A stretch of 64,000 bases of DNA from an uncultured Candidatus Binatia bacterium (GCA_965243735.1 CBDEVZ010000008.1:3700017-3764016); one strand, 5' to 3'; shown: positions 20,201 through 63,969, numbered from the stretch's first letter. Translations and numbers: made by a program. The notes: a model not told the origin generated them from the sequence alone.

Positions 20201-21106
20201 TCAGGCCGAGACCTCACACACCTCACACACCTCACACACCTCAGGATTGTTCTGCTCGGCCAGAACGCGGTCCTCTTCGAACTGATACTGCGGCGTGTCA
20301 TGGCGTTCGACGCGCGTATCGCCGTCGTTTGAGGCCGTCTCTTTCCAGCCGTCCCCGTGTGACCAGCGGAAGGGCAGCCTCTTGATGACGCCCGGCGTCG
20401 TCAGCTCGCTCAAGCCTGCCAGCGCCTGGCGCAGAATGTCTCGCTGCAACTGGGGTTGATGCGGCTCGCCGGTAGTGTGGCCCAGGGGAAAATCGAGAAA
20501 GGCAGCCCTGGGGGGATTCACGGCTTGCATGATGTCAAGCGCGCTGCCCATGCTGAGCGTTGGGATACCGGCAGCCTCGGCGTTGCGGGCGATCAGTCCC
20601 ACGGACTGATGACACACCGGTCAAACCGGGACGAGCAGCGCGGCATCGACGCGTTCGGCCAGCAGGCGCGCGGTCAGCTGCGGGGCCAGCTCGTCGCGCA
20701 CCCGCCGGGAAGAGTAAATCCCGCCCATGAAGGTGTAGGCGTGGTCGGCCAGTTCACCAATCACGCCTTCTTTGACCAGGCCGCGCAGCGTGTCGATGGG
20801 AAACACCACGTTGGCGTCTTTGCGGGCGTCGGTCTGGTCATAGGCGAAGTGGGCTGTTCGGAGATCACTCGTTCTTACGTCGGTGGGAATGGCTCGGAAG
20901 GACAGATCGTCTTTGAAATGGAAGGCGACTTGGCCCTTCATGTACAGCCCGCCGGACGCGATCAAACCCAGACGGCATTCGGACAGCGGCTTGCGCAGCG
21001 GTGTCCACGGCGGGGTGTCGGGGTTGTGGACCCACTTGTACGGCTTATAGCCGAGCTTGGCGTAATTATTGGTGATGCGGGTGATGTAATCGACCGTTTG
21101 CGACAT
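20201..21106 (-). CDS. Selenoprotein of the glycine/sarcosine/betaine/D-proline reductase selenoprotein B (GrdB/PrdB) family, 301 aa with Sec at the UGA at 20621-20623
   Basis: ORF-track pieces 20621-21280 and 20201-20617 are in the same frame and separated only by TGA and one Pro codon, reading '...DAALLVPV-U-PVCHQSVGLIARNAEAAGIPT...'. N-terminal 'PWTPLRKPLSECRLGLIASGG' and 'DANVVFPIDTLRGL' match the GRDB-like domain. Confidence 0.88.
20211..20243. repeat. 9-bp tandem repeat (acctcacac) x3 plus a partial copy, encoding EVC-EVC-EVC-EV
   Basis: Exact copies at 20211, 20220 and 20229, partial copy at 20238. Confidence 0.9.
20592..20610 (-). promoter_or_regulatory. Candidate bacterial SECIS hairpin
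   Basis: mRNA UGA-ccgguguguc-AUCAGUCC-gug-GGACUGAU: a perfect 8-bp stem whose G-starting apical loop begins 18 nt after the UGA. Confidence 0.7.
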
Positions 21107-21236
21107 GGCGTCCTCCGAGCGGCCTAGCTTGACGACTTTTGTGACGGAATGCAACGGCAGGCATGCTTGCACGGCTGTCGAGAACCGGCTAGGCTCCCGG
21201 CGTTCGGCACCCAACGACGACCAGGAGGGCACGCGC

Positions 21237-22085
21237 ATGAAATTTGGACTTTTTGGCATCAATATGGGCATCGCCAGCAACCCAGACGTAGCCGTGCGGG
21301 TTGCCCAGGCGGCCGAAGCGGCCGGTTTTGAGTCGGTCTGGACCGGTGAGCATGTGGTCCTGCCCGACCCCCAGGCTCCGCCCTCCCCGCTTCCGCCCCA
21401 CCACCCGATGCTCGACCCGAGTGTAGCCCTGGCCTTTATTGCCGGTCAGACCCAAACGGTCAGGCTCGGCACCGGCATCATCATTCTGCCCCAGCGCAAC
21501 CCCCTGGTGCTGGCCAAAGAACTGGCCAGTCTGGACGTGGTGTCCGGCGGGCGCCTGATCTTTGGCTTGGGTATCGGCTATCTCAAGCCGGAGTTTGACG
21601 CGCTGGGGATTCCGTTCAGCCACAAAGGGCCGCGGTCGATTGATTATCTGGAGGCCATGAAGGCTGTCTGGACCCAGGACAAGCCTGCCCACCAGGGGGA
21701 TTTTGTCTCGTTTGGTGATATTCAGGCTCACCCCCAACCGGTCCAGAAGCCCCACCCGCCGGTGGTCTTTGGCGGCCATACCCCGCAGGCCTACGAACGC
21801 AGCGTGCAGCACGGCAACGGCTGGTTCGGCTTTGCCCTCGATGTCGAGGCCACGGCAAAATGTCTGGAAGGGCTCAAACACGCCGCCCAGCAGGTCGAGC
21901 GTCCGGCCGAGTTGGGCAGCCTGGAAATCAGCGTCACGCCCAAGGGCCGGCTCGATACCGACACGGTCAAACGCTTTGCCGACCTCGGCGTAGACCGGCT
22001 GATTCCGTTCAAAGCCGCCAAGACCGAGGCGGACTGGATCGACTACGCCAAGCAGACGGGTGATGAGTTGATTGGTAGGAGCTGA
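21237..22085 (+). CDS. LLM-class putative F420-dependent oxidoreductase (Rv2161c-like)
   Basis: 'AEAAGFESVWTGEHVVLP', 'LGTGIIILPQRNPLVLAKELASLDVVSGGRLIFGLGIG'. GGAGG upstream of the ATG at 21237. Confidence 0.9.
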   Translation: MKFGLFGINMGIASNPDVAVRVAQAAEAAGFESVWTGEHVVLPDPQAPPSPLPPHHPMLDPSVALAFIAGQTQTVRLGTGIIILPQRNPLVLAKELASLDVVSGGRLIFGLGIGYLKPEFDALGIPFSHKGPRSIDYLEAMKAVWTQDKPAHQGDFVSFGDIQAHPQPVQKPHPPVVFGGHTPQAYERSVQHGNGWFGFALDVEATAKCLEGLKHAAQQVERPAELGSLEISVTPKGRLDTDTVKRFADLGVDRLIPFKAAKTEADWIDYAKQTGDELIGRS

Positions 22086-23006: not shown

Positions 23007-24623
23007 CTAGGACGGCGTCTCTACTGCCTCGTGGTCGGGCTGAAGGGCCGGCAGCGGGGTCCCATGGGCACCGATCCGGCCATAGGTGAGTCCAGCCAGT
23101 GCGGGCACGGTCGCGCTCAGCTCGGCGAAGACCTCACTGATTGATACGCTATCCGGGCCGCCGAATTGAGTACTGAGCAGCGCCAGGGCCTCCCAGCCTG
23201 TCTTGACTTCGCCCGGCGGGGGAAAAGCCTGGCGCAGGCGTTGAATCCGACCGGCGTAGTTGATGCAGCTGCCGTCGGTCTCGGGAGCCGTAGCGATCGG
23301 CAAGACCAGGTCCGCATACTCGGTCGTGTCAGTGTAGTCGGTATCCAGCAGGATAACCGTGGCCTGGCCCAGAGCGGCGTCGACCACGGCCTGGCCCAGG
23401 GCAGCCACGAGGTCAACACCAAAGACGAACAAGACCTGAATCTGCCCCTGGCCAACGGCGCTCAGGATTTGTCCGGCCTCGCCCCCCCCATTCAGCAGGC
23501 CCAGCGTTTTGAGGCCGCGGGTGTTGGGGTTCTTGTCGGCCCGGATCAGCAGGTCGTCGTGAGGCGCGTTGTCGGGCGACCAGGACAGGCCAACAGCCTG
23601 TTGGCTGCCCAGCTGCTGGTTGAGAATGCGCGACAACAGATAGGCTTCTTCGTTGCTGGCCTTGGCTCCGATGATGGCCGCGACTGCGTCCTGACCGTGC
23701 TCGGCCTGAGCGTGTCGAACCGTCTCAACCAATCGCTGGACAGCCTCATCCCAGGAGGCCTGACGGAAGGCGGTCTCAGCCCGGACCAGGGGGTGCAGGA
23801 TACGGCTCTCGTGTTGAAACGCCCGGTACGACAGTCGGCCCTCGTCGCACATCCAGAACTCGTTGACCTCCATATTCTGGCGCGGCCGAAACCGGTACAT
23901 CTGACCGCGCCGGTGGTAGATGTCGATATTGCAGCCGGTCTCACACCGGGTGCAGATCGACTCGGTCTTCTCCAGGTACCAGACGCGTGCCTTGAAGCGA
24001 AAATCCTTGGCCGTCAGGGCGCCGACCGGACACACGTCAACGACATTCATGGAGTAGGGATTGTCCAGCGTTTTGCCCGGAAACAGGTCGATATTGCAGT
24101 GGTCGCTCCGGTCAAAAATCCCCAGCTCGCCGGTCTCGGTGACTTCATCCAGAAAACGGGTACAGCGGGCGCACAGAATACAGCGCTCCTGGTCGAGCAT
24201 GACCTGGGGACCTATCTCGACCGCCTTGTCTTTCTCGACCTTGGCCTCAATCGGCATCTGGCTCTTATACGCCCCGTAGTCCATGTAGTAGTCTTGCAGC
24301 TTGCACTCGCCGGCCTGGTCACAGATGGGGCAGTCAACCGGGTGATTGATCAGGATGAACTCCAACACCGCAGACTGGGCGGCCTTGACCTTGGGGCTGG
24401 TAGTGTGGATGACCATGCCGTCATTCACCCGCGTATTGCAGGCAATTTGCAGCTTGGGCATCTTCTCGATTTCGACCAGGCACATCCGGCAGTTGCCCGA
24501 GATGCTGAGGCCCGGGTGGTAGCAGTAGTGCGGCACCTCTATCCCCAGGCGCTCGGCCGCCTGGATGATATTGAGCCCACCCTCGACCGTAATCTCCCGC
24601 CCGTCAATCTCAATCTTTGGCAT
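23007..24623 (-). CDS. nuoG: NADH-quinone oxidoreductase subunit G-like Fe-S protein
   Basis: 2Fe-2S 'CYH...GNCRMCLV', 'HPVDCPICDQAGEC', 'CILCARC', and N7-type 'CTRCETGC...WMCDEG'. Confidence 0.88.
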   Translation of the reverse strand: MPKIEIDGREITVEGGLNIIQAAERLGIEVPHYCYHPGLSISGNCRMCLVEIEKMPKLQIACNTRVNDGMVIHTTSPKVKAAQSAVLEFILINHPVDCPICDQAGECKLQDYYMDYGAYKSQMPIEAKVEKDKAVEIGPQVMLDQERCILCARCTRFLDEVTETGELGIFDRSDHCNIDLFPGKTLDNPYSMNVVDVCPVGALTAKDFRFKARVWYLEKTESICTRCETGCNIDIYHRRGQMYRFRPRQNMEVNEFWMCDEGRLSYRAFQHESRILHPLVRAETAFRQASWDEAVQRLVETVRHAQAEHGQDAVAAIIGAKASNEEAYLLSRILNQQLGSQQAVGLSWSPDNAPHDDLLIRADKNPNTRGLKTLGLLNGGGEAGQILSAVGQGQIQVLFVFGVDLVAALGQAVVDAALGQATVILLDTDYTDTTEYADLVLPIATAPETDGSCINYAGRIQRLRQAFPPPGEVKTGWEALALLSTQFGGPDSVSISEVFAELSATVPALAGLTYGRIGAHGTPLPALQPDHEAVETPS

Positions 24624-24630
24624 ACGAACC

Positions 24631-25926
24631 TCACGCAGCCTGGGGCTGGCTATCGGCCTTTTTGCGCAGCGAACAGCCGCCCTCGGTGATGTGGGCCACG
24701 AATTCGTCGCGGAATTTACTCAGATAGCTCTGGGTCGGCATGGCTGCAGCGTCGGCCAGCACACACACGGTGTTGCCGGTCATGTTGGTGCAGATCCGGT
24801 CAATCAGGTCGATATCGTCGGGCTGACCGTTGCCCTCTTCGAGGCGGACCAGCAGCTTGTGCAGCCAGCCGGTGCCCTCTCGGCACGGCGAACACTGGCC
24901 GCACGACTCGTGGTGGTAGAAGCGGTCGATGATTTTGAGCGCCTGGACCATACAGGTGTCTTCGTCCATGACGATGATCCCGGCCGTGCCCAGAAAGGCA
25001 CCGATCGCCCGCATGGAATCGAAGTCCATGTTGACGTCGATCTCGTCTGGAGTGAGGATGGGAAATGACGAGCCGCCCGGCATCACGGCTTTCAGTTTCT
25101 TTCCACCCAGAATGCCCCCGGCGTAGTCATAAATGACCTCGCGTAGCGGCATGCCCATCGGCAGCTCGTACAGCCCCGGCTTTTCAACGTGGCCGCTGAC
25201 ACAGTAGATCTTGGGACCCGGACCGGTCTCCGGACCGATGGCCTTAAACCACTCCGGGCCGTGCCCGATGATGGACGGCACACAGGCCAGGGTTTCGACA
25301 TTCTGGACAATCGTCGGGCAGCCGAACAGGCCGTACACCGCAGGAAAAGGCGGTTTGATGCGCGGATAGGCGCGCTTGCCTTCGAGGGACTGGATCAGGC
25401 CGGTCTCCTCGCCGCAGATATAGGCTCCCGCCCCACGGTGCACGTACACGTCAAGGTCAAAGCCGCTGCCACAGATGTCTTTGCCCAAAAAGCCACGGGC
25501 ATAGGCCGCCTCAATCGCCTCGTGGAGGCGTTTGGCGCCGAGGGCAAATTCTCCCCGGATGTAGATATAGGCCGTGTGGGCGTTGATGGCGTAGGCGGAG
25601 ATCAGAATGCCTTCGAGCAGGACGTGAGTGTTCCACTCAATGAGCGCACGGTCCTTGAAGGTTCCCGGCTCGCTCTCATCCGCATTGGCGCACAGGTAGA
25701 CCGGTTTGTCCGAGTCTTTCGGCAAAAACCCCCACTTCATGCCGGCCACAAACCCGGCCCCGCCCCGGCCGCGCAGATTGGAGTCTTTGACCTGGGCGGT
25801 GACATCTTGCGGTGTAAGCGTGGTCAGGGCTTTTTTGGCCGCTTCATAACCGCCGTGTTTGAGGTAGACATCAAGCTTACGAATGTCGGGAACATCGAGG
25901 TGGCGCAGGAGTACTCGGTCAGCCAT
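24631..25926 (-). CDS. nuoF: NADH-quinone oxidoreductase subunit F
   Basis: 'LRGRGGAGF', 'NADESEPGTFKDR', 'GAGAYICGEET', 'ESCGQCSPCREG', 'CVL'. Confidence 0.94.
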   Translation of the reverse strand: MADRVLLRHLDVPDIRKLDVYLKHGGYEAAKKALTTLTPQDVTAQVKDSNLRGRGGAGFVAGMKWGFLPKDSDKPVYLCANADESEPGTFKDRALIEWNTHVLLEGILISAYAINAHTAYIYIRGEFALGAKRLHEAIEAAYARGFLGKDICGSGFDLDVYVHRGAGAYICGEETGLIQSLEGKRAYPRIKPPFPAVYGLFGCPTIVQNVETLACVPSIIGHGPEWFKAIGPETGPGPKIYCVSGHVEKPGLYELPMGMPLREVIYDYAGGILGGKKLKAVMPGGSSFPILTPDEIDVNMDFDSMRAIGAFLGTAGIIVMDEDTCMVQALKIIDRFYHHESCGQCSPCREGTGWLHKLLVRLEEGNGQPDDIDLIDRICTNMTGNTVCVLADAAAMPTQSYLSKFRDEFVAHITEGGCSLRKKADSQPQAA

Positions 25927-48858: not shown

Positions 48859-50037
48859 TTACTCCAAGATTTTAGCGACGACCCCAGCCCCCACCGTGCG
48901 GCCCCCCTCCCGAATCGCAAACCGGAGCCCCTCGTCCATCGCTATCGGTGTCAATAACGTTACCGTCATCTGCGTGTTATCCCCCGGCATCACCATCTCG
49001 GTCCCCGCCGGTAAGGCCACCGTCCCCGTCACGTCCGTCGTCCGAAAGTAAAACTGTGGCCGGTAGTTGTTGAAAAACGGCGTATGCCGCCCCCCCTCTT
49101 CTTTGGTCAACACGTACACCTCGGCCTCGTACCGGGTGTGCGGCGTGATGCTCCCCGGCTGCGCTAACACTTGCCCCCGCTCGATCTCTTCCCGCTTGAT
49201 CCCCCGGAGCAGACACCCCACGTTGTCCCCCGCTTGCCCCACGTCCAGCAGCTTGCGGAACATCTCCACCCCCGTCACCGTCGTCTTCTCCGTCGCCCGA
49301 ATCCCCACGATCTCCACCTCTTCCCCGACTTTGATCTGCCCCCGCTCAATCCGCCCGGTCGCTACCGTTCCCCGACCCGAAATCGAAAAGACGTCTTCGA
49401 CCGACATCAAAAACGGCTTGTCCACTTCCCGCTCGGGCTCCGGAATGAAACTGTCCACCGCCGCCATTAGTTCGAGAATTGACGCCGTGTCGGCGCCCTC
49501 TAAGGCGTCTAAGGCACTCCCCCGGATGATCGGCGTGTCGTCACCCGGAAATTCGTACTTCGACAGCAGTTCCCGCACTTCCAACTCCACCAGGTCCAGC
49601 AGCTCTTCGTCATCCACCATGTCCACTTTGTTCATGTACACCACAATCGCCGGCACCCCCACTTGGCGCGCCAACAGGATATGCTCCCGCGTCTGTGGCA
49701 TCGGCCCGTCGGTCGCCGCCACCACTAATATCGCTCCGTCCATCTGCGCCGCCCCGGTGATCATGTTCTTGATGTAGTCCGCGTGCCCCGGACAGTCCAC
49801 GTGCGCATAGTGGCGCTGCTCGGTCTCGTACTCCACGTGCGCCGTGTTGATCGTGATCCCCCGCTCTTTCTCTTCGGGCGCTTTGTCAATCTCTTCAAAC
49901 GCAATCGCCTGCGCCATCGCTCGCTCCGCTAACACTTTCGTGATCGCGGCCGTCAGCGTGGTCTTCCCATGGTCAATGTGCCCGATCGTCCCTACGTTCA
50001 CGTGCGGCTTACTCCGCTCAAACCGCTCCTTCGCCAT
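48859..50037 (-). CDS. tuf: Elongation factor Tu, copy 1
   Basis: 'GHIDHGKT', '[12 protein letters not shown]', 'NKVD'. Confidence 0.98.
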
Positions 50038-51145: not shown

Positions 51146-55240
<4,095 letters not shown>

Positions 55241-55258
55241 CTCTCCCCCCAGCGTGCT

Positions 55259-58200
55259 CTATTCTTCTTCGAGCAGTTCGACGTTGAGCGCCAAGCTTTG
55301 CAGTTCTCGGATCATGACATTAAACGATTCGGGAAGGCCCGGTTCCAATACGTTTTCTCCTTTCACAATCGCCTCATAGATACGCGTCCGACCGGCCACA
55401 TCATCCGACTTGACCGTCAACATTTCCTGTAGACTGTAAGCGGCACCGTAGGCTTCGAGGGCCCACACCTCCATTTCTCCAAGCCGCTGGCCACCAAACT
55501 GAGCCTTGCCGCCCAGCGGCTGCTGGGTCACCAGGGAGTAGGGACCGGTAGAGCGGGCATGAATCTTGTCCTCAACCAGGTGGTGCAGTTTCAGGATGTA
55601 CATCACGCCAACAGTGATGGCTCTCCCAAAGGGCTCGCCGGTCCGACCGTCGTACAATACGGTTTGTCCGGATTCAGGTAAGCCCGCTTTTTGTAACAGG
55701 TCAAAGATTTCTTTTTCCGGCGCGCCGTCGAACACGGGTGTCGCCACGTGCACCCCGGTCTGGGCGCGCTCGCTCAGGCGCGTCAAGTCCGCGTCTGACA
55801 GCTCTTGAATCCTGTCAACAAATTCCTTGTTGGCATACACCTCCTGGAGTTGGGAACGGAGGGTCTCCAGGGTCTGGGGCGGGTCGCCGTTGTGGCCGTT
55901 GCCCATCTGCTCGCCGAGGCTGCGCACGGCCCAGCCGAGATGGGTCTCAAGAATTTGTCCAACATTCATCCGCGAGGGCACACCCAGCGGATTGAGGACA
56001 ACATCGACTGGAGTCCCATCGGCCAGGTAAGGCATATCCTCTTCGGGCAGAATACGGGACAGGACGCCCTTGTTGCCGTGTCGGCCCGCCATCTTGTCGC
56101 CGACCTGGAGCTTGCGTTTGATGGCGACAAAGACCTTAACCATCTTGATGATGCCGGGGGGCAGTTCGTCGCCACTGCGCAGCTTCTCAACCTTCTTCTC
56201 AAACTCCTCCCGGATCCGGCCGACCTGGGCCAGCATGGCATCGACGCTCCGGCCCAGCTCGTCCTCGACCGCCTCATCGCCAAGCTTGAGCCGGCCCCAG
56301 TACGAGGGCGGAACGGCTCGCAGCAGCTCTTCGGTAATCTCCTGGCCTTTGGGAAACAGGACCCGCCTGGTGTCATCGTCGCTGATCCGAACGGTCAGCG
56401 TTTTGCCCAACGCCAGATCGAGAACTTTTCCGAACGTGCTCTCCTGGACGATCTGAATCTCGTCCTCCTGGTCTTTGCGGAGTCGCTCAATCTCTTCGTC
56501 CTCAATGCTCTGGCTCCGCTCATCCTTGGAGACGCCCTTGCGGGAGAAGACACGCACGTTGATCACCGTGCCCTCAACACCGGGAGGAACCTTGAGCGAG
56601 GTATCACGCACCTCCCCGGCTTTTTCGCCGAAGATCGCGCGCAGGAGTTTCTCTTCGGGCGACAGTTGGGTCTCGCCTTTGGGCGTGATCTTGCCGACCA
56701 GAATATCGCCCGGCGTCACCTCGGCGCCGATCCTGACGATCCCGCTTTCGTCCAGGTCTTTGAGCGCCTCTTCACCAACATTCGGGATATCCTGGGTGAT
56801 TTCCTCCGGGCCGAGTTTGGTATCGCGAGCGACGCATTCAAACTCTTCAATATGCACCGAGGTGAACACATCCTCGCGCAGCAGACGCTCGCTGACCAGG
56901 ATAGAGTCTTCAAAATTGTACCCGCCCCAGATCATGAACGCGACCAGCACATTGCGGCCCAGGGCCAGTTCGCCCATATCGGTGGCCGGTCCGTCGGCCA
57001 CCACGTCGCCGGCGGTAATATGGTCGCCGACCTTGACGATTGGCCGCTGGTTGACGCAGGTGTTCTGGTTGGAACGCTGGTACTTGATCAGGGGGTAGAT
57101 ATCGACCGCAGCGTCCCCGGCAGTCGGTGGCGCGTCGGCCTTGATCACCACCCGGGTGGAATCGACATTCTCAACCCGGCCGCTCCGATGGGCAACGACC
57201 GTCGCCCCGGAATCCCGGGCCACGACCTGCTCCATGCCCGTACCGACCAGCGGTGCTTCGGTGCGCAGCAGGGGAACCGCCTGACGCTGCATGTTCGATC
57301 CCATCAGAGCCCGGTTGGCGTCGTCGTGCTCAAGAAAAGGAATCAGGGCGGCCGCAACGCTCACCAACTGGGTGGGCGAGACATCCATCAGCTGGACCTG
57401 TTCGGGTTGGACCATTACAAATTCGCCACCCAGACGGGAAGACACCAAGTCTCGGACAAAGCGCCCGTCTTCGTCAACCGGGGCGTTGGCCTGGGCGATG
57501 GTCCGGGTCTCTTCTTCGAGGGCGGACAAGTACCGCACCCGCTGGGTCACCCGACCGTCCTCGACCTCCCGGTATGGCGTCTCGATAAAGCCGAATTCAT
57601 TGACCCGGGCATAGGTTGACAGGCTGGAGATCAGCCCGATATTCGGCCCCTCGGGCGTCTCAATGGGACACACGCGGCCATAGTGGGTCGGATGGACGTC
57701 CCGGACCTCAAAACCGGCCCGCTCACGGGTCAGGCCGCCCGGTCCGAGGGCGGACAGACGCCGCTTGTGGGTCACTTCGGACAAGGGATTGGTCTGGTCC
57801 ATGAACTGCGACAGCTGGCTCGATCCAAAGAATTCCTTGAGCGCAGCCGAGACAGGCTTGTAGTTGACCAGTTCCTGGGGCATCAGAGTCTCAACATCCT
57901 GGAGACTCATGCGCTCTTTGACGGCGCGTTCCATTCGGACCAGCCCGATCCGGAACTGATTTTCAACCAACTCGCCAACCGCGCGCACCCGTCGGTTGCC
58001 CAGATGGTCAATATCATCGACCACTCCGTTACCGTTTTTCAACTCAAACAGGTAGCGGACGACCTCAAGGATATCTTCCTTGCGCAGGGTCCCGAGATCG
58101 AGCGGGGCATCGAGCTGGAGCTTATGGTTGAGCTTGAGACGGCCAACCTTGGACAGGTTGTAGCGCTCGGCATTGAAGAACAGGTTCTGGAAGAAAACCG

Positions 58201-59368
58201 TTGCCGCCTCAGCCGTTGGCGGATCTCCGGGCCGTAGACGGCGATAAATCTCCATCTCGGCCTCTTTGGGCTCCGTAATCTTGTCTTGCAACAGCGTATT
58301 GCGCAGGGATGGACCGATGTGCGACTCGTCGATAAAGAGCGTCTCTATGGACGGGACCCTGCGTTCGATCAGGAGGTCGAGGTCGGCCTGGCTGATCTCT
58401 TGGTTGCAGGCGACCAGAACTTCCTGCGTCTGCGGGTCGCACACATCATGGGCTGCGACCAGGCCCACGACTTCTTCGAGGGTGATCGGGATCTGCTCAA
58501 GCCCGACAGCCCCTATCTGTCTGATCGCGTTCCGGGTGAACCGACGCCCTTCTTTAACTAGCACATCGTGGTTTGTCGGATTGCGAACCTCTTGGGTCGC
58601 ACGCAGTCCGAGCAGGAGCTGAGGTTGGAATTTCTTTGTGGCGCGGCCGCCGTCAAAGGTAATGGTATCGGTCGGGTAGAAATAGTTGAGCAGATCCTCG
58701 ACCGTCATGCCCAGGGCCCGCAGCAGCACGGTTGCGTGGAATTTGCGGCGACGGTCTATGCGGACATACAGGATATCGCGCGGATCGAATTCAAAGTCGA
58801 TCCACGACCCCCGGTAGGGAATGATCCGGGCCGAATAGAGCAGTTTCCCACTGGCGTGGGTCTTGCCCTTGTCATGGTCGAAAAAGACCCCGGGCGAGCG
58901 GTGCAACTGGCTCACAATAACCCGCTCAGTCCCGTTCACCATGAAGGTGCCATACGAGGTCATCAGCGGGATCTCGCCAAAATAGACCTCTTGCTCTTTG
59001 ACGTTTTTGATCGTACGAGCCTCCGTCCGAGGATCGACATCCCACAGCACAAGTTGGATCGTCACCTTCAGGGGAGCGGCATAGGTCATGCCGCGCTGGT
59101 GGCATTCCTCGACCGTGTACTTCGGCTCTCCGAGCGTATAGCTCACAAATTCAAGCGACGCGGTTTCATTGAAGTCCTTTATCGGAAACACCGACCGAAA
59201 AACCCCTTGCAGCCCGGACTCCGTGCGGTCGTCCGGGCTAGGGCTCCGCTGCAGGAATTCCTCGTACGAGTGCCGTTGGATCTCCAACAGGTGTGGAATC
59301 TCAATAATTTTGCCGATCTGGCTGAACGCCCGTCGGAAACGAAAATTATCTGCCAGCTGCAACGCCAT
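55259..59368 (-). CDS. rpoB: RNA polymerase beta subunit
   Basis: '[17 protein letters not shown]', '[12 protein letters not shown]', 'GGQRLGEME'. Confidence 0.98.
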
Positions 59369-59398
59369 TCCCACTCTTCTCCTTTGGCGTACACGCCC

Positions 59399-62345: not shown

Positions 62346-62443
62346 TTTGCCCGCATCCTCTCTCCGCCCTCAGGAACTGAGCCTTGTCTGGAACTCGGTC
62401 GTCATCGGTCGTTCATCTTTCAGTGCTCCACCACAAAGAAAAG

Positions 62444-62518
62444 CGGGTCAGGCAGGCTTCGAACCTGCAACCCCCGGATTTGGAGTCCGGTGCTCTATCC
62501 AATTCGAGCTACTGACCC
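62444..62518 (-). tRNA. tRNA-Trp (CCA); 3' CCA not encoded
   Basis: GGGTCAG-TA-GCTC-GAATTGGATA-GAGC-A-CCGGA-CTCCAAA-TCCGG-GGGTT-GCAGG-TTCGAAG-CCTGC-CTGACCC-G folds as a cloverleaf; canonical position before secE. Confidence 0.93.
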
Positions 62519-62534: not shown

Positions 62535-63713
62535 TTACTCCAAGATTTTAGCGACGACCCCAGCCCCCACCGTGCGGCCCCCCTCCCGAATCGCAAACCG
62601 GAGCCCCTCGTCCATCGCTATCGGTGTCAATAACGTTACCGTCATCTGCGTGTTATCCCCCGGCATCACCATCTCGGTCCCCGCCGGTAAGGCCACCGTC
62701 CCCGTCACGTCCGTCGTCCGAAAGTAAAACTGTGGCCGGTAGTTGTTGAAAAACGGCGTATGCCGCCCCCCCTCTTCTTTGGTCAACACGTACACCTCGG
62801 CCTCGTACCGGGTGTGCGGCGTGATGCTCCCCGGCTGCGCTAACACTTGCCCCCGCTCGATCTCTTCCCGCTTGATCCCCCGGAGCAGACACCCCACGTT
62901 GTCCCCCGCTTGCCCCACGTCCAGCAGCTTGCGGAACATCTCCACCCCCGTCACCGTCGTCTTCTCCGTCGCCCGAATCCCCACGATCTCCACCTCTTCC
63001 CCGACTTTGATCTGCCCCCGCTCAATCCGCCCGGTCGCTACCGTTCCCCGACCCGAAATCGAAAAGACGTCTTCGACCGACATCAAAAACGGCTTGTCCA
63101 CTTCCCGCTCGGGCTCCGGAATGAAACTGTCCACCGCCGCCATTAGTTCGAGAATTGACGCCGTGTCGGCGCCCTCTAAGGCGTCTAAGGCACTCCCCCG
63201 GATGATCGGCGTGTCGTCACCCGGAAATTCGTACTTCGACAGCAGTTCCCGCACTTCCAACTCCACCAGGTCCAGCAGCTCTTCGTCATCCACCATGTCC
63301 ACTTTGTTCATGTACACCACAATCGCCGGCACCCCCACTTGGCGCGCCAACAGGATATGCTCCCGCGTCTGTGGCATCGGCCCGTCGGTCGCCGCCACCA
63401 CTAATATCGCTCCGTCCATCTGCGCCGCCCCGGTGATCATGTTCTTGATGTAGTCCGCGTGCCCCGGACAGTCCACGTGCGCATAGTGGCGCTGCTCGGT
63501 CTCGTACTCCACGTGCGCCGTGTTGATCGTGATCCCCCGCTCTTTCTCTTCGGGCGCTTTGTCAATCTCTTCAAACGCAATCGCCTGCGCCATCGCTCGC
63601 TCCGCTAACACTTTCGTGATCGCGGCCGTCAGCGTGGTCTTCCCATGGTCAATGTGCCCGATCGTCCCTACGTTCACGTGCGGCTTACTCCGCTCAAACC
63701 GCTCCTTCGCCAT
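62535..63713 (-). CDS. tuf: Elongation factor Tu, copy 2
   Basis: Protein identical to 48859-50037; DNA identical wherever compared by eye. Confidence 0.98.
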
Positions 63714-63786
63714 GTCTCTCGCTCCTTCGCTGCTGAACTCAGCCTCTCAAGGCTGGTTCGTCGTCCTAATCCCCTGGCAAAAAGTA

Positions 63787-63859
63787 AGCCCAGGAGCGGG
63801 CTTGAACCGCCGACCTCGTCCTTACCAAGGACGTGCTCTACCTGCTGAGCTACCTGGGC
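63787..63859 (-). tRNA. tRNA-Thr (GGT)
   Basis: GCCCAGG-TA-GCTC-AGCAGGTA-GAGC-A-CGTCC-TTGGTAA-GGACG-AGGTC-GGCGG-TTCAAGC-CCGCT-CCTGGGC-T; canonical position before tufB. Confidence 0.94.
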
Positions 63860-63969
63860 TCGTGAGCGCTCGTGAGCACTCGGTCTAGCTGCGATCCATA
63901 GCACTCTATAAGCACTCTTATGTGTGCAGACGTAGCGGGGAAGCCCTTCGGCCTATCTCGTGGGGCACA

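Follow-up and report, generated by a model that had tools for sequence, protein, structure and literature searches.

A predicted PrdB-like selenoprotein with a covarying SECIS-like hairpin in an uncultured Binatia bacterium

Introduction

GrdB, GrdF and GrdH (TIGR01917, NF040794 and NF040795) are the approximately 47-kDa, substrate-specific selenoprotein B of glycine/sarcosine/betaine reductase. The motif of GrdB is UxxCxxC (PMC13188914), and the related PrdB is the 26-kDa selenoprotein subunit of clostridial D-proline reductase (Kabisch et al. 1999, via PMC13188914); the known prd and grd genes lie in operons (PMC13188914). A metagenomic family, 'proline reductase PrdB' (pfam07355, UxxC), was named after PrdB by homology (PMC1088965, PMC2398784). 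Among the selenoprotein families of the Sargasso Sea data it ranked third in abundance, represented by 42 Sec forms and one Cys form (Zhang, Fomenko & Gladyshev 2005, PMC1088965), and it was again among the top selenoprotein families of the GOS data, with 235 Sec and 110 Cys forms (Zhang & Gladyshev 2008, PMC2398784). Anaeromyxobacter and Geobacter have also been reported to carry a PrdB-type gene (PMC1794560). Bacterial SECIS elements are described as stem-loops that lie right after the UGA and expose a small apical loop with a G (PMC1088965), and we found no literature linking Binatia or Binatota to selenoproteins.

Here we describe a gene within a 64-kb stretch of DNA (the window) from an uncultured Candidatus Binatia bacterium. 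Comparison of its sequence with that of its homologues makes it very probable that this is one gene encoding a Sec-containing protein of the GrdB/PrdB superfamily, decoded via a hairpin just downstream of an in-frame UGA. It is a new Binatia member of the selenoprotein family known from metagenomes since 2005: it shares pfam07355 and UxxC with the marine family, its Sec forms likewise outnumber Cys forms, its hosts are likewise free-living and non-clostridial, and its ORF is likewise interrupted by TGA and followed by a stem-loop, with no essential difference between the two. An earlier note on this DNA had presented the gene as a hidden selenoprotein, a claim to novelty that does not hold for a family already prominent in the 2005 and 2008 surveys (PMC1088965, PMC2398784).

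Results

One reading frame across an in-frame UGA

The earlier note had also proposed that two ORFs separated by the gene caller are one reading frame, and translation of 20201-21106 on the minus strand bears this out. From 21106 to 20201 there is a single frame of 301 sense/Sec codons with one internal stop, which the ORF lister cuts into 20621..21280(-) and 20201..20617(-). The principal features are as follows.

20201..21106, minus strand: read-through coding sequence of 301 codons, Met1 to Ala301 with predicted Sec162 (from translation and collinear homologues)
21116..21111, minus strand: GGAGGA upstream of the ATG, with a 4-nt spacer to the start
21106..21104, minus strand: start ATG, read off the sequence; the N-termini of homologues align here
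20623..20621, minus strand: in-frame UGA, predicted Sec162, which opens the U-P-V-C motif (from translation and the homologue column)
20614..20612, minus strand: Cys165 codon UGU, an invariant column in the homologue alignment (C172 there)
20203..20201, minus strand: terminal TGA of the PrdB-like gene (from translation)

Around the internal stop the peptide reads ...ERVDAALLVPV*PVCHQSVGLIARNAE... (also written ...DAALLVPV*PVCHQSVGLIAR...), giving the motif VPV-U-PVC-HQ, and homologues can be aligned across residues 1-296 of the 301-residue protein. TGA is the stop codon of the PrdB-like gene itself and of six of the ten confident genes in the window; TGA ends so many of these genes that the code must be standard, with no reassignment. 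Scanning the 64-kb window for coding ORFs joined by a TGA recovered, besides the PrdB-like gene, three neighbouring gene pairs whose shared frame is coincidental, and no second selenoprotein gene. Promoter and terminator scans returned nothing useful for the PrdB-like gene.

On the plus strand, an ORF at 20456..21127 (223 aa) overlaps the gene; we rejected it as a GC-rich shadow frame. A similar antisense ORF occurs in 72 homologous loci, a recurrence that arises because the real gene is conserved.

Relationship to PrdB and GrdB

Profile scores, computed with Cys put in place of the internal stop, place the protein clearly above the PF07355 (GRDB) cutoff (48.2 bits against 22) and narrowly above that of TIGR01918, 'various_sel_PB' (67.7 against 65.45). 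The best-scoring NCBIfam model is the PrdB equivalog TIGR04483, which is collinear with residues 29-250 over model positions 13-236 of 238 and falls below its cutoff (180.8 bits against 300). The GrdB/GrdF/GrdH models reach 58-67 bits against cutoffs of 602-800 and align only at model positions ~261-420 of 431. On these sequence comparisons we assign the protein to a 'PrdB-like' clade of the GrdB/PrdB superfamily. It is not PrdB or GrdB in the strict sense, because it scores below the equivalog cutoffs, has no UxxCxxC and, across about 125 loci, has no PrdA, GrdA or GrdE partner beside it. The family assignment of the earlier note thus stands at the level of the superfamily, where PF07355 and TIGR01918 are both passed, and fails as an identification with PrdB or GrdB proper.

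The comparison with each relative is instructive. About 224 residues are collinear with PrdB, the Sec of UxxC occupies the equivalent position in both, and selenol/thiol chemistry is presumably shared by analogy; the protein described here is longer by ~16 residues at the N-terminus and ~50 at the C-terminus, where it carries a CxxC tail. With GrdB the match is limited to the C-terminal ~160 residues of that protein, which correspond to residues 76-232 with a homologous Sec position, whereas the N-terminal ~260 residues of GrdB are absent here and the motif is UPVCHQS rather than UxxCxxC.

Gene context also bears on this question. The window neighbours encode glutamate synthase GltB/GltD, an Exo/endo-phosphatase, NuoG/F-like proteins and an enoyl-CoA hydratase, together with a divergently transcribed luciferase-like monooxygenase. 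None of the ten neighbouring window genes encodes PrdA, PrdC, GrdA, GrdE or GrdC, and neither prdD, prdE or prdF nor an adjacent trx was seen nearby. Across homologous loci, surveyed with crude ORF calling, there was no conserved partner within +/-6 kb, the commonest gene family being present in at most 17 of 80 loci. Among the immediate neighbours (106 upstream, 103 downstream) every Pfam family occurred five times or fewer, and neither the ten annotated recurrent clusters nor the 25 commonest immediate-neighbour families included the PrdA or GrdE families. Weak recurrent adjacency was seen for genes of CoA-transferase III, ADP-forming acyl-CoA synthetase, enoyl-CoA hydratase and acyl-CoA dehydrogenase. 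The gene is stand-alone and monocistronic.

One alternative is that the protein is nonetheless a true PrdB of D-proline reductase, or a GrdB-type subunit, whose pyruvoyl partner (PrdA or GrdE) and electron-transfer proteins are specified by genes at other sites in the genome. The rank of TIGR04483 as top NCBIfam match, collinear over 224 residues, speaks for it, as do the shared UxxC and the JGI label of homologues, 'D-proline reductase (dithiol) PrdB'. It is hard to reconcile with a score of 180.8 bits where the equivalog requires 300, with the lack of PrdA, PrdC, GrdA, GrdE and GrdC among the ten window neighbours and with the additional, conserved C-terminal extension of ~50 residues bearing the CxxC tail. 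Further, no partner family recurs across loci whereas prd and grd genes are operonic (PMC13188914), and the hosts are mostly environmental and non-clostridial rather than Stickland fermenters. We consider this alternative improbable, and a separate PrdB-like identity is preferred.

The UGA column across homologues

Searching 5.8 billion proteins produced 1,017 matches. About three-quarters of the top 120, which were inspected by length, are only 165-220 residues long, and eight such short homologues that we aligned all stop exactly at ...LLVPV. Full-length protein homologues read CPVCHQ (n=22) or TPVCHQ (n=5) at the UGA column. The alignment check suggested by the earlier note therefore came out in its favor, with Cys or TGA, and in a few cases Thr, at this column of a protein that passes PF07355.

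Two genome scans, taking one genome per species, yielded ~125 distinct loci, of which the best 80 were ranked by similarity to the query. TGA occupies the column, with the frame running on, in all 80 of the closest genomic loci, and it is present in 114 of 114 distinct closest genomic homologues from about ten phyla. The hosts include Binatia, Methylomirabilota, Desulfobacterota-type MAGs, Entotheonella, Acidobacteriota, Chloroflexi, Gemmatimonadota, Gammaproteobacteria, Acidimicrobiia and Myxococcota, with one cultured isolate, the gammaproteobacterium Thioalkalivibrio sp. HK1. More distant homologues have Cys or Thr in place of the TGA, and TGC/TGT at this column was confirmed in loci L083, L152 and L164-L167. 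Such broad retention of TGA rather than TGY argues, on comparative sequence evidence, for selection for a distinct residue. Cys165 shows no variation among the full-length Cys/Thr homologues, and every genomic locus has PVCHQ, partly by design since Cys165 belonged to the search motif; it is probably the resolving Cys of UxxC.

Substitution rates tell how the two halves of the gene have evolved. Measured against the closest Binatia relatives (dS 0.16-1.1), dN/dS is similar in the two halves, 0.05-0.08 on the 5' side of the TGA and 0.10-0.16 on its 3' side, and the latter value implies that the C-terminal half is translated in this Binatia lineage. The nearest relative, CBDBEO01, has an orthologue that is 96-97% identical in protein sequence and has one CEV repeat fewer. 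An exact 45-mer is shared with this Binatia MAG, which is a different assembly from that of the window; the DNA comes from a closely related member of Binatia, and looking up the N-terminal fragment as an exact protein gave no match.

These data weigh on two simpler accounts of the interrupted frame. If the gene were a pseudogene or an assembly error in which a Cys codon, TGC or TGT, had become TGA, a single substitution would suffice, and the sequence apparently does come from a metagenome-assembled genome. The same TGA, however, recurs in 114 different sequences spread over many phyla and assemblies, the frame beyond it is intact up to the conserved C-terminus, and the relaxed constraint that a pseudogene should show is the opposite of what is seen (dN/dS 0.10-0.16 downstream); we give this account next to no credence.

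The other account is a conserved split gene, in which translation really ends at the TGA and starts afresh for the C-terminal half at GTG 20617..20615, two codons further on. A GTG-started ORF does exist at 20201..20617, with 3 nt between the stop and the potential start. Yet in 76 of the 114 homologues the GTG position is GTC, GTT, GTA or ATT, none of them a start codon, and the UGA position aligns with the Cys of the homologous UxxC motif. The AF2 model builds both halves into a single domain core and places the motif where a strand meets a helix, and the covarying hairpin described below would cover the putative initiation region. A split gene is thus extremely improbable, and a single read-through gene remains the preferred explanation.

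A covarying hairpin downstream of the UGA

From the UGA onward, the RNA reads UGA CCG GUG UGU CAU CAG UCC GUG GGA CUG AUC. The perfect 8-bp hairpin that the earlier note had placed here, with a G-starting loop 18 nt past the UGA, is present at 20610..20592 (-), and its parts are as follows.

20589..20613, minus strand: SECIS-like stem-loop (from folds, RNAalifold, covariation and codon bias)
20610..20603 with 20599..20592, minus strand: 8-bp stem in which AUCAGUCC pairs with GGACUGAU
20602..20600, minus strand: apical loop GUG, between AUCAGUCC and GGACUGAU
G20613-C20589 and U20612-G20590, minus strand: lower pairs across bulged C's (from RNAfold)

The stem-loop begins 11 nt after the UGA, the first loop base, a G, lies 18 nt after it, and RNAfold gives -10.8 kcal/mol for the 25 nt of 20613..20589. 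The apical loop is just 3 nt with the closing C-G pair in place, and the Val codon also dictates its G and U. Within a single genome this structure stands out from chance only in part. Perfect 8-bp hairpins with loops of 3-8 nt are rare, the 64 kb containing seven. Of 1,935 TGA triplets in any frame, three are followed by such a hairpin at a distance of 6-19 nt, roughly as many as chance predicts, so that by itself the hairpin is poor evidence. When compared with its dinucleotide shuffles, the 60-nt stretch has a folding z-score of just -1.2. When the peptide and genome codon usage were held fixed, 1.4% of synonymous recodings reached eight of eight pairs and 0.7% folded equally well; the gene places CAU, UCC and the rare GGA (8% of Gly codons) just where the stem requires them. 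No Rfam model matches the hairpin: at a permissive threshold only dauA appeared, on the opposite strand and at E = 2.2, a chance match.

The comparative data are real support for the hairpin as judged from sequence. Among 78 distinct 60-mers, 98.2% of stem cells are paired. Pair 27-43 is U-A in 52 and C-G in 21, a switch made through silent His CAU/CAC together with Ile AUC/Val GUC; pair 30-40 is G-C in 74, A-U in two and G-U in two; and pair 31-39 is U-A in 68, U-G in six and A-U in two. Double changes are thus found at three stem pairs, and the covariation score was matched by none of 500 shuffles. Sliding the 3' arm out of register lowers pairing to 2-47%, and the RNAalifold consensus recovers the same helix with the two lower pairs and a bulge.

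Codon choice points the same way. Across the 114 homologues the stem Gly codon is GGA in 97, GGG in 11, GGT in six and GGC, the genome's preferred Gly codon, in none; Leu is CUG in 106, UUG in eight and CUC in none; and Ser is UCC in 101. Nearby Pro, Val, Cys, Ala and Arg codons outside the stem use all synonyms, and we attribute the rare codons within it to the constraint of the hairpin. TGA forms average 7.8 of eight pairs and -11.3 kcal/mol, as against 5.4 of eight and -5.0 kcal/mol in the Cys/Thr forms (n=9; TGC/TGT or ACA/ACC/ACT). In one locus (L082) the peptide HQSVGLI is unchanged, the codons are GGC CUC and the stem is broken.

Taken with the covariation, the frozen stem codons and the loss of the stem in Cys/Thr forms, the earlier suggestion that the hairpin serves as a SECIS has held up well, and the data support its behaving as a conserved, covarying and selected RNA element. 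Like bacterial SECIS elements of the E. coli fdhF/fdnG type, the consensus applied in the SECIS searches of PMC1088965, this predicted element lies within the coding sequence just 3' of the UGA, has a small G-containing apical loop and, in the RNAalifold consensus, shows a bulged pyrimidine below the upper stem. It differs from them in its family-specific hairpin sequence.

Decoding of the UGA

Of tRNA genes, ARAGORN and Rfam searches of the window found tRNA-Trp and tRNA-Thr only, with no tRNA-Sec, and an ARAGORN SeC scan of the window and 81 loci likewise found no tRNA-Sec. A tblastn search of the same 64-kb window and 81 loci with E. coli SelA, SelB and SelD queries detected no selA, selB or selD, its sole matches being two tuf genes. 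This gene, and this gene only, indicates that this Binatia lineage may be taken to decode selenocysteine.

Cys insertion at Sec positions occurs in other systems. It is therefore worth weighing whether the UGA is read through without Sec, either by near-cognate Trp or Cys insertion or by Cys-tRNA(Sec) under Se limitation, with the hairpin a mere stimulator. This precedent, and the fact that the Sec trait of the organism is deduced from one gene, lend the idea some substance. Against it, the motif and its position match the biochemically proven Sec of GrdB/PrdB (PMC13188914), the hairpin has the position and the small G-containing loop of a bacterial SECIS (PMC1088965), and TGA has been conserved over TGY across a broad range of hosts. 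We judge non-Sec read-through to be very improbable. The reading of the gene as a single 301-aa selenoenzyme, which the earlier note had put forward, is supported by TGA conservation, covariation and dN/dS, and we hold it with high confidence.

Predicted structure and the C-terminal CxxC tail

An AF2 model built from a 36-sequence alignment (mean pLDDT 92.1, pTM 0.91) shows a single alpha/beta domain that is continuous over the UGA. In the model, strand 155-159 (LLVPV) leads into helix 164-178, with U162-P-V-C165 predicted at the helix N-cap, the usual place of redox-active CxxC motifs. Residues 291-301 are disordered (tail pLDDT <50). Foldseek found no PDB relative below E = 5e-3 (TM at most 0.32), nor did sequence and profile searches of the PDB.

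The C-terminus has two features of interest.

20204..20245, minus strand: C-terminal tail PEVCEVCEVCEVSA, in which CxxC is extended to CxxCxxC
20211..20243: 9-bp tandem repeat array of 3.7 copies, found by TRF

Sec forms have a conserved C-terminal extension, WK...D.R.PR..TPQYQ.EEDR..AE, followed by CxxC (CPVC, CPTC, CEVC or similar). One extra copy of the 9-bp repeat lengthens the tail here, the relatives L002 and L003 having two CEV units. The final 20 residues include a CxxC in 95 of 115 distinct Sec forms as against none of nine Cys/Thr forms, and none of 27 full-length Cys/Thr proteins has a C-terminal CxxC; with these nine non-Sec DNA sequences and 27 Cys/Thr proteins as the controls, the association of tail and Sec may be phylogenetic rather than functional. 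The CxxC tail of Sec forms and its lengthening here by the 9-bp repeat are two smaller new points. In the portions of the two metagenome surveys available to us (PMC1088965, PMC2398784), no mention was found of the C-terminal CxxC tail, of the absence of a partner gene or of Thr forms.

Discussion

We propose that the UGA at 20623..20621 is not taken as a stop in translation and that the stem-loop, acting as a bacterial SECIS, would bring SelB-GTP-Sec-tRNA(Sec) to the ribosome, so that Sec becomes residue 162. Sec162 and Cys165 would then act together as a selenol/thiol redox pair of the kind present in GrdB and PrdB, in an enzyme that most likely carries out a reductive cleavage or another selenol-dependent redox step. 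Its substrate is probably neither D-proline nor glycine, which are improbable because no pyruvoyl partner subunit is encoded nearby.

In the chemistry that we envision, Sec162 would attack the substrate and Cys165 would resolve the adduct, leaving a selenenylsulfide. The flexible C-terminal CxxC tail would probably re-reduce the Se-S bond and could, more speculatively, receive electrons in its turn from thioredoxin or another cellular dithiol. We offer this chemistry and tail relay as a doubtful but specific scheme. A broader conception, which we hold tentatively as a real possibility, is that the Sec 'PrdB-like' proteins are orphan, self-contained selenoenzymes rather than proline reductase subunits, widespread in aerobic soil, marine and sponge-associated bacteria, with a U-x-x-C that is recycled by their own CxxC arm and a new chemistry that is possibly acyl-CoA-linked. 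The link between the Sec form and the CxxC tail provides a concrete hypothesis for the orphan PrdB-like family, and the locus is further evidence that a selenoprotein family ranking among the most abundant in the environment has neither partner genes nor a solved structure.

These findings also bear on database annotation. The proper entry for this gene is a single 301-residue selenoprotein carrying a translation exception at 20623..20621, and hundreds of 160-180-residue 'PrdB' database entries are halves of such genes. That standard pipelines would split the gene, as the earlier note anticipated, is visible in public records, where the N-terminal fragment of 160-180 aa is held as the 'protein'. 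Public records of Sec forms are such N-terminal fragments, for example HOQ41974.1 (160 aa), and go by the name of PrdB or of 'glycine/sarcosine/betaine reductase selenoprotein B family protein'.

Threonine-type homologues and the C-terminal tail

Some full-length homologues of the PrdB-like selenoprotein carry a Thr codon (ACA, ACC or ACT) in place of Sec or Cys, two substitutions away from TGA, and these Thr-type genes retain the second Cys of the motif but have neither the hairpin nor the CxxC tail. Here and below, L numbers denote fetched homologue loci, with the position within the locus after the colon.

L082:6577, L162:1050 and L163:3493, Thr-type homologues, Thr at the Sec/Cys position, motif TPVCHQ

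The selenoprotein of the window ends in (CEV)3, encoded by a perfect 9-bp tandem repeat.

20211-20243, 3.7 copies of the 9-bp repeat (minus-strand codons 20204-20245)

Because its closest relatives, L002 and L003, carry two units (CEVCEV) rather than three, the tail is longer here, CxxCxxC instead of CxxC, through an in-frame microsatellite.

In the orthologue from a long-read Binatia MAG (CAXXHG01; L067:6472 onward), just 97 codons of the C-terminal half can be aligned (55% identity) and the protein terminates in an unrelated tail, probably reflecting a frameshift or assembly error 3' of the TGA.

Opposite the selenoprotein gene lies an open reading frame that we rejected as a real gene, reading it as a GC-rich shadow frame; a similar antisense shadow frame occurs in 72 loci only because the selenoprotein gene itself is conserved.

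20456-21127, plus strand, antisense open reading frame of 223 aa

Genomic neighbourhoods

In the window, the selenoprotein gene and a luciferase-like monooxygenase gene are divergently transcribed from start codons 130 bp apart, a layout shared by L002-L005, the nearest four Binatia loci, and not conserved further out. Beyond it, a NuoF-like/NuoG-like pair lies outside any full nuo operon, with an Exo/endo-phosphatase gene downstream; the short NuoG-like protein has 2Fe-2S and 4Fe-4S domains and only a partial molybdopterin domain, and the pair may be a soluble diaphorase module.

21237-22085, plus strand, luciferase-like monooxygenase
23007-25926, minus strand, NuoF-like (431 aa), then short NuoG-like (538 aa)

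Among the homologues, a CoA-transferase family III gene adjoins, or shares 4 nt with, the Cys-type homologue in three loci, and an ADP-forming acyl-CoA synthetase gene (CoA_binding and Succ_CoA_lig domains, plus ATP-grasp_5 in the L031-type frame) adjoins the Thr-type gene of L082 and the homologue in about 12 Sec-type loci.

L083:4880-6004, L165:1769-3004 and L166:2668-4402, CoA-transferase family III context of Cys-type homologues
L082:4487-5959 (Thr-type) and L031:6941-8968, ADP-forming acyl-CoA synthetase context

Enoyl-CoA hydratase, acyl-CoA dehydrogenase, 4HBT thioesterase and AMP-binding ligase genes also recur, and these CoA-linked neighbours hint weakly at a tie of the family to CoA-thioester metabolism.

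Elongation factor genes in the window

At its far end the window runs through an ordinary bacterial str/rif region, whose two tuf copies account for the SelB-query matches in the tblastn search of the window and 81 loci with E. coli SelA, SelB and SelD.

48859-50037 and 62535-63713, minus strand, EF-Tu (tuf), 392 aa each
51146-59374, between the tuf copies, rpoB/rpoC-sized pair (1371 and 1364 aa), assigned by size
62443-62518 and 63786-63860, tRNA-Trp and tRNA-Thr, adjoining the second tuf copy
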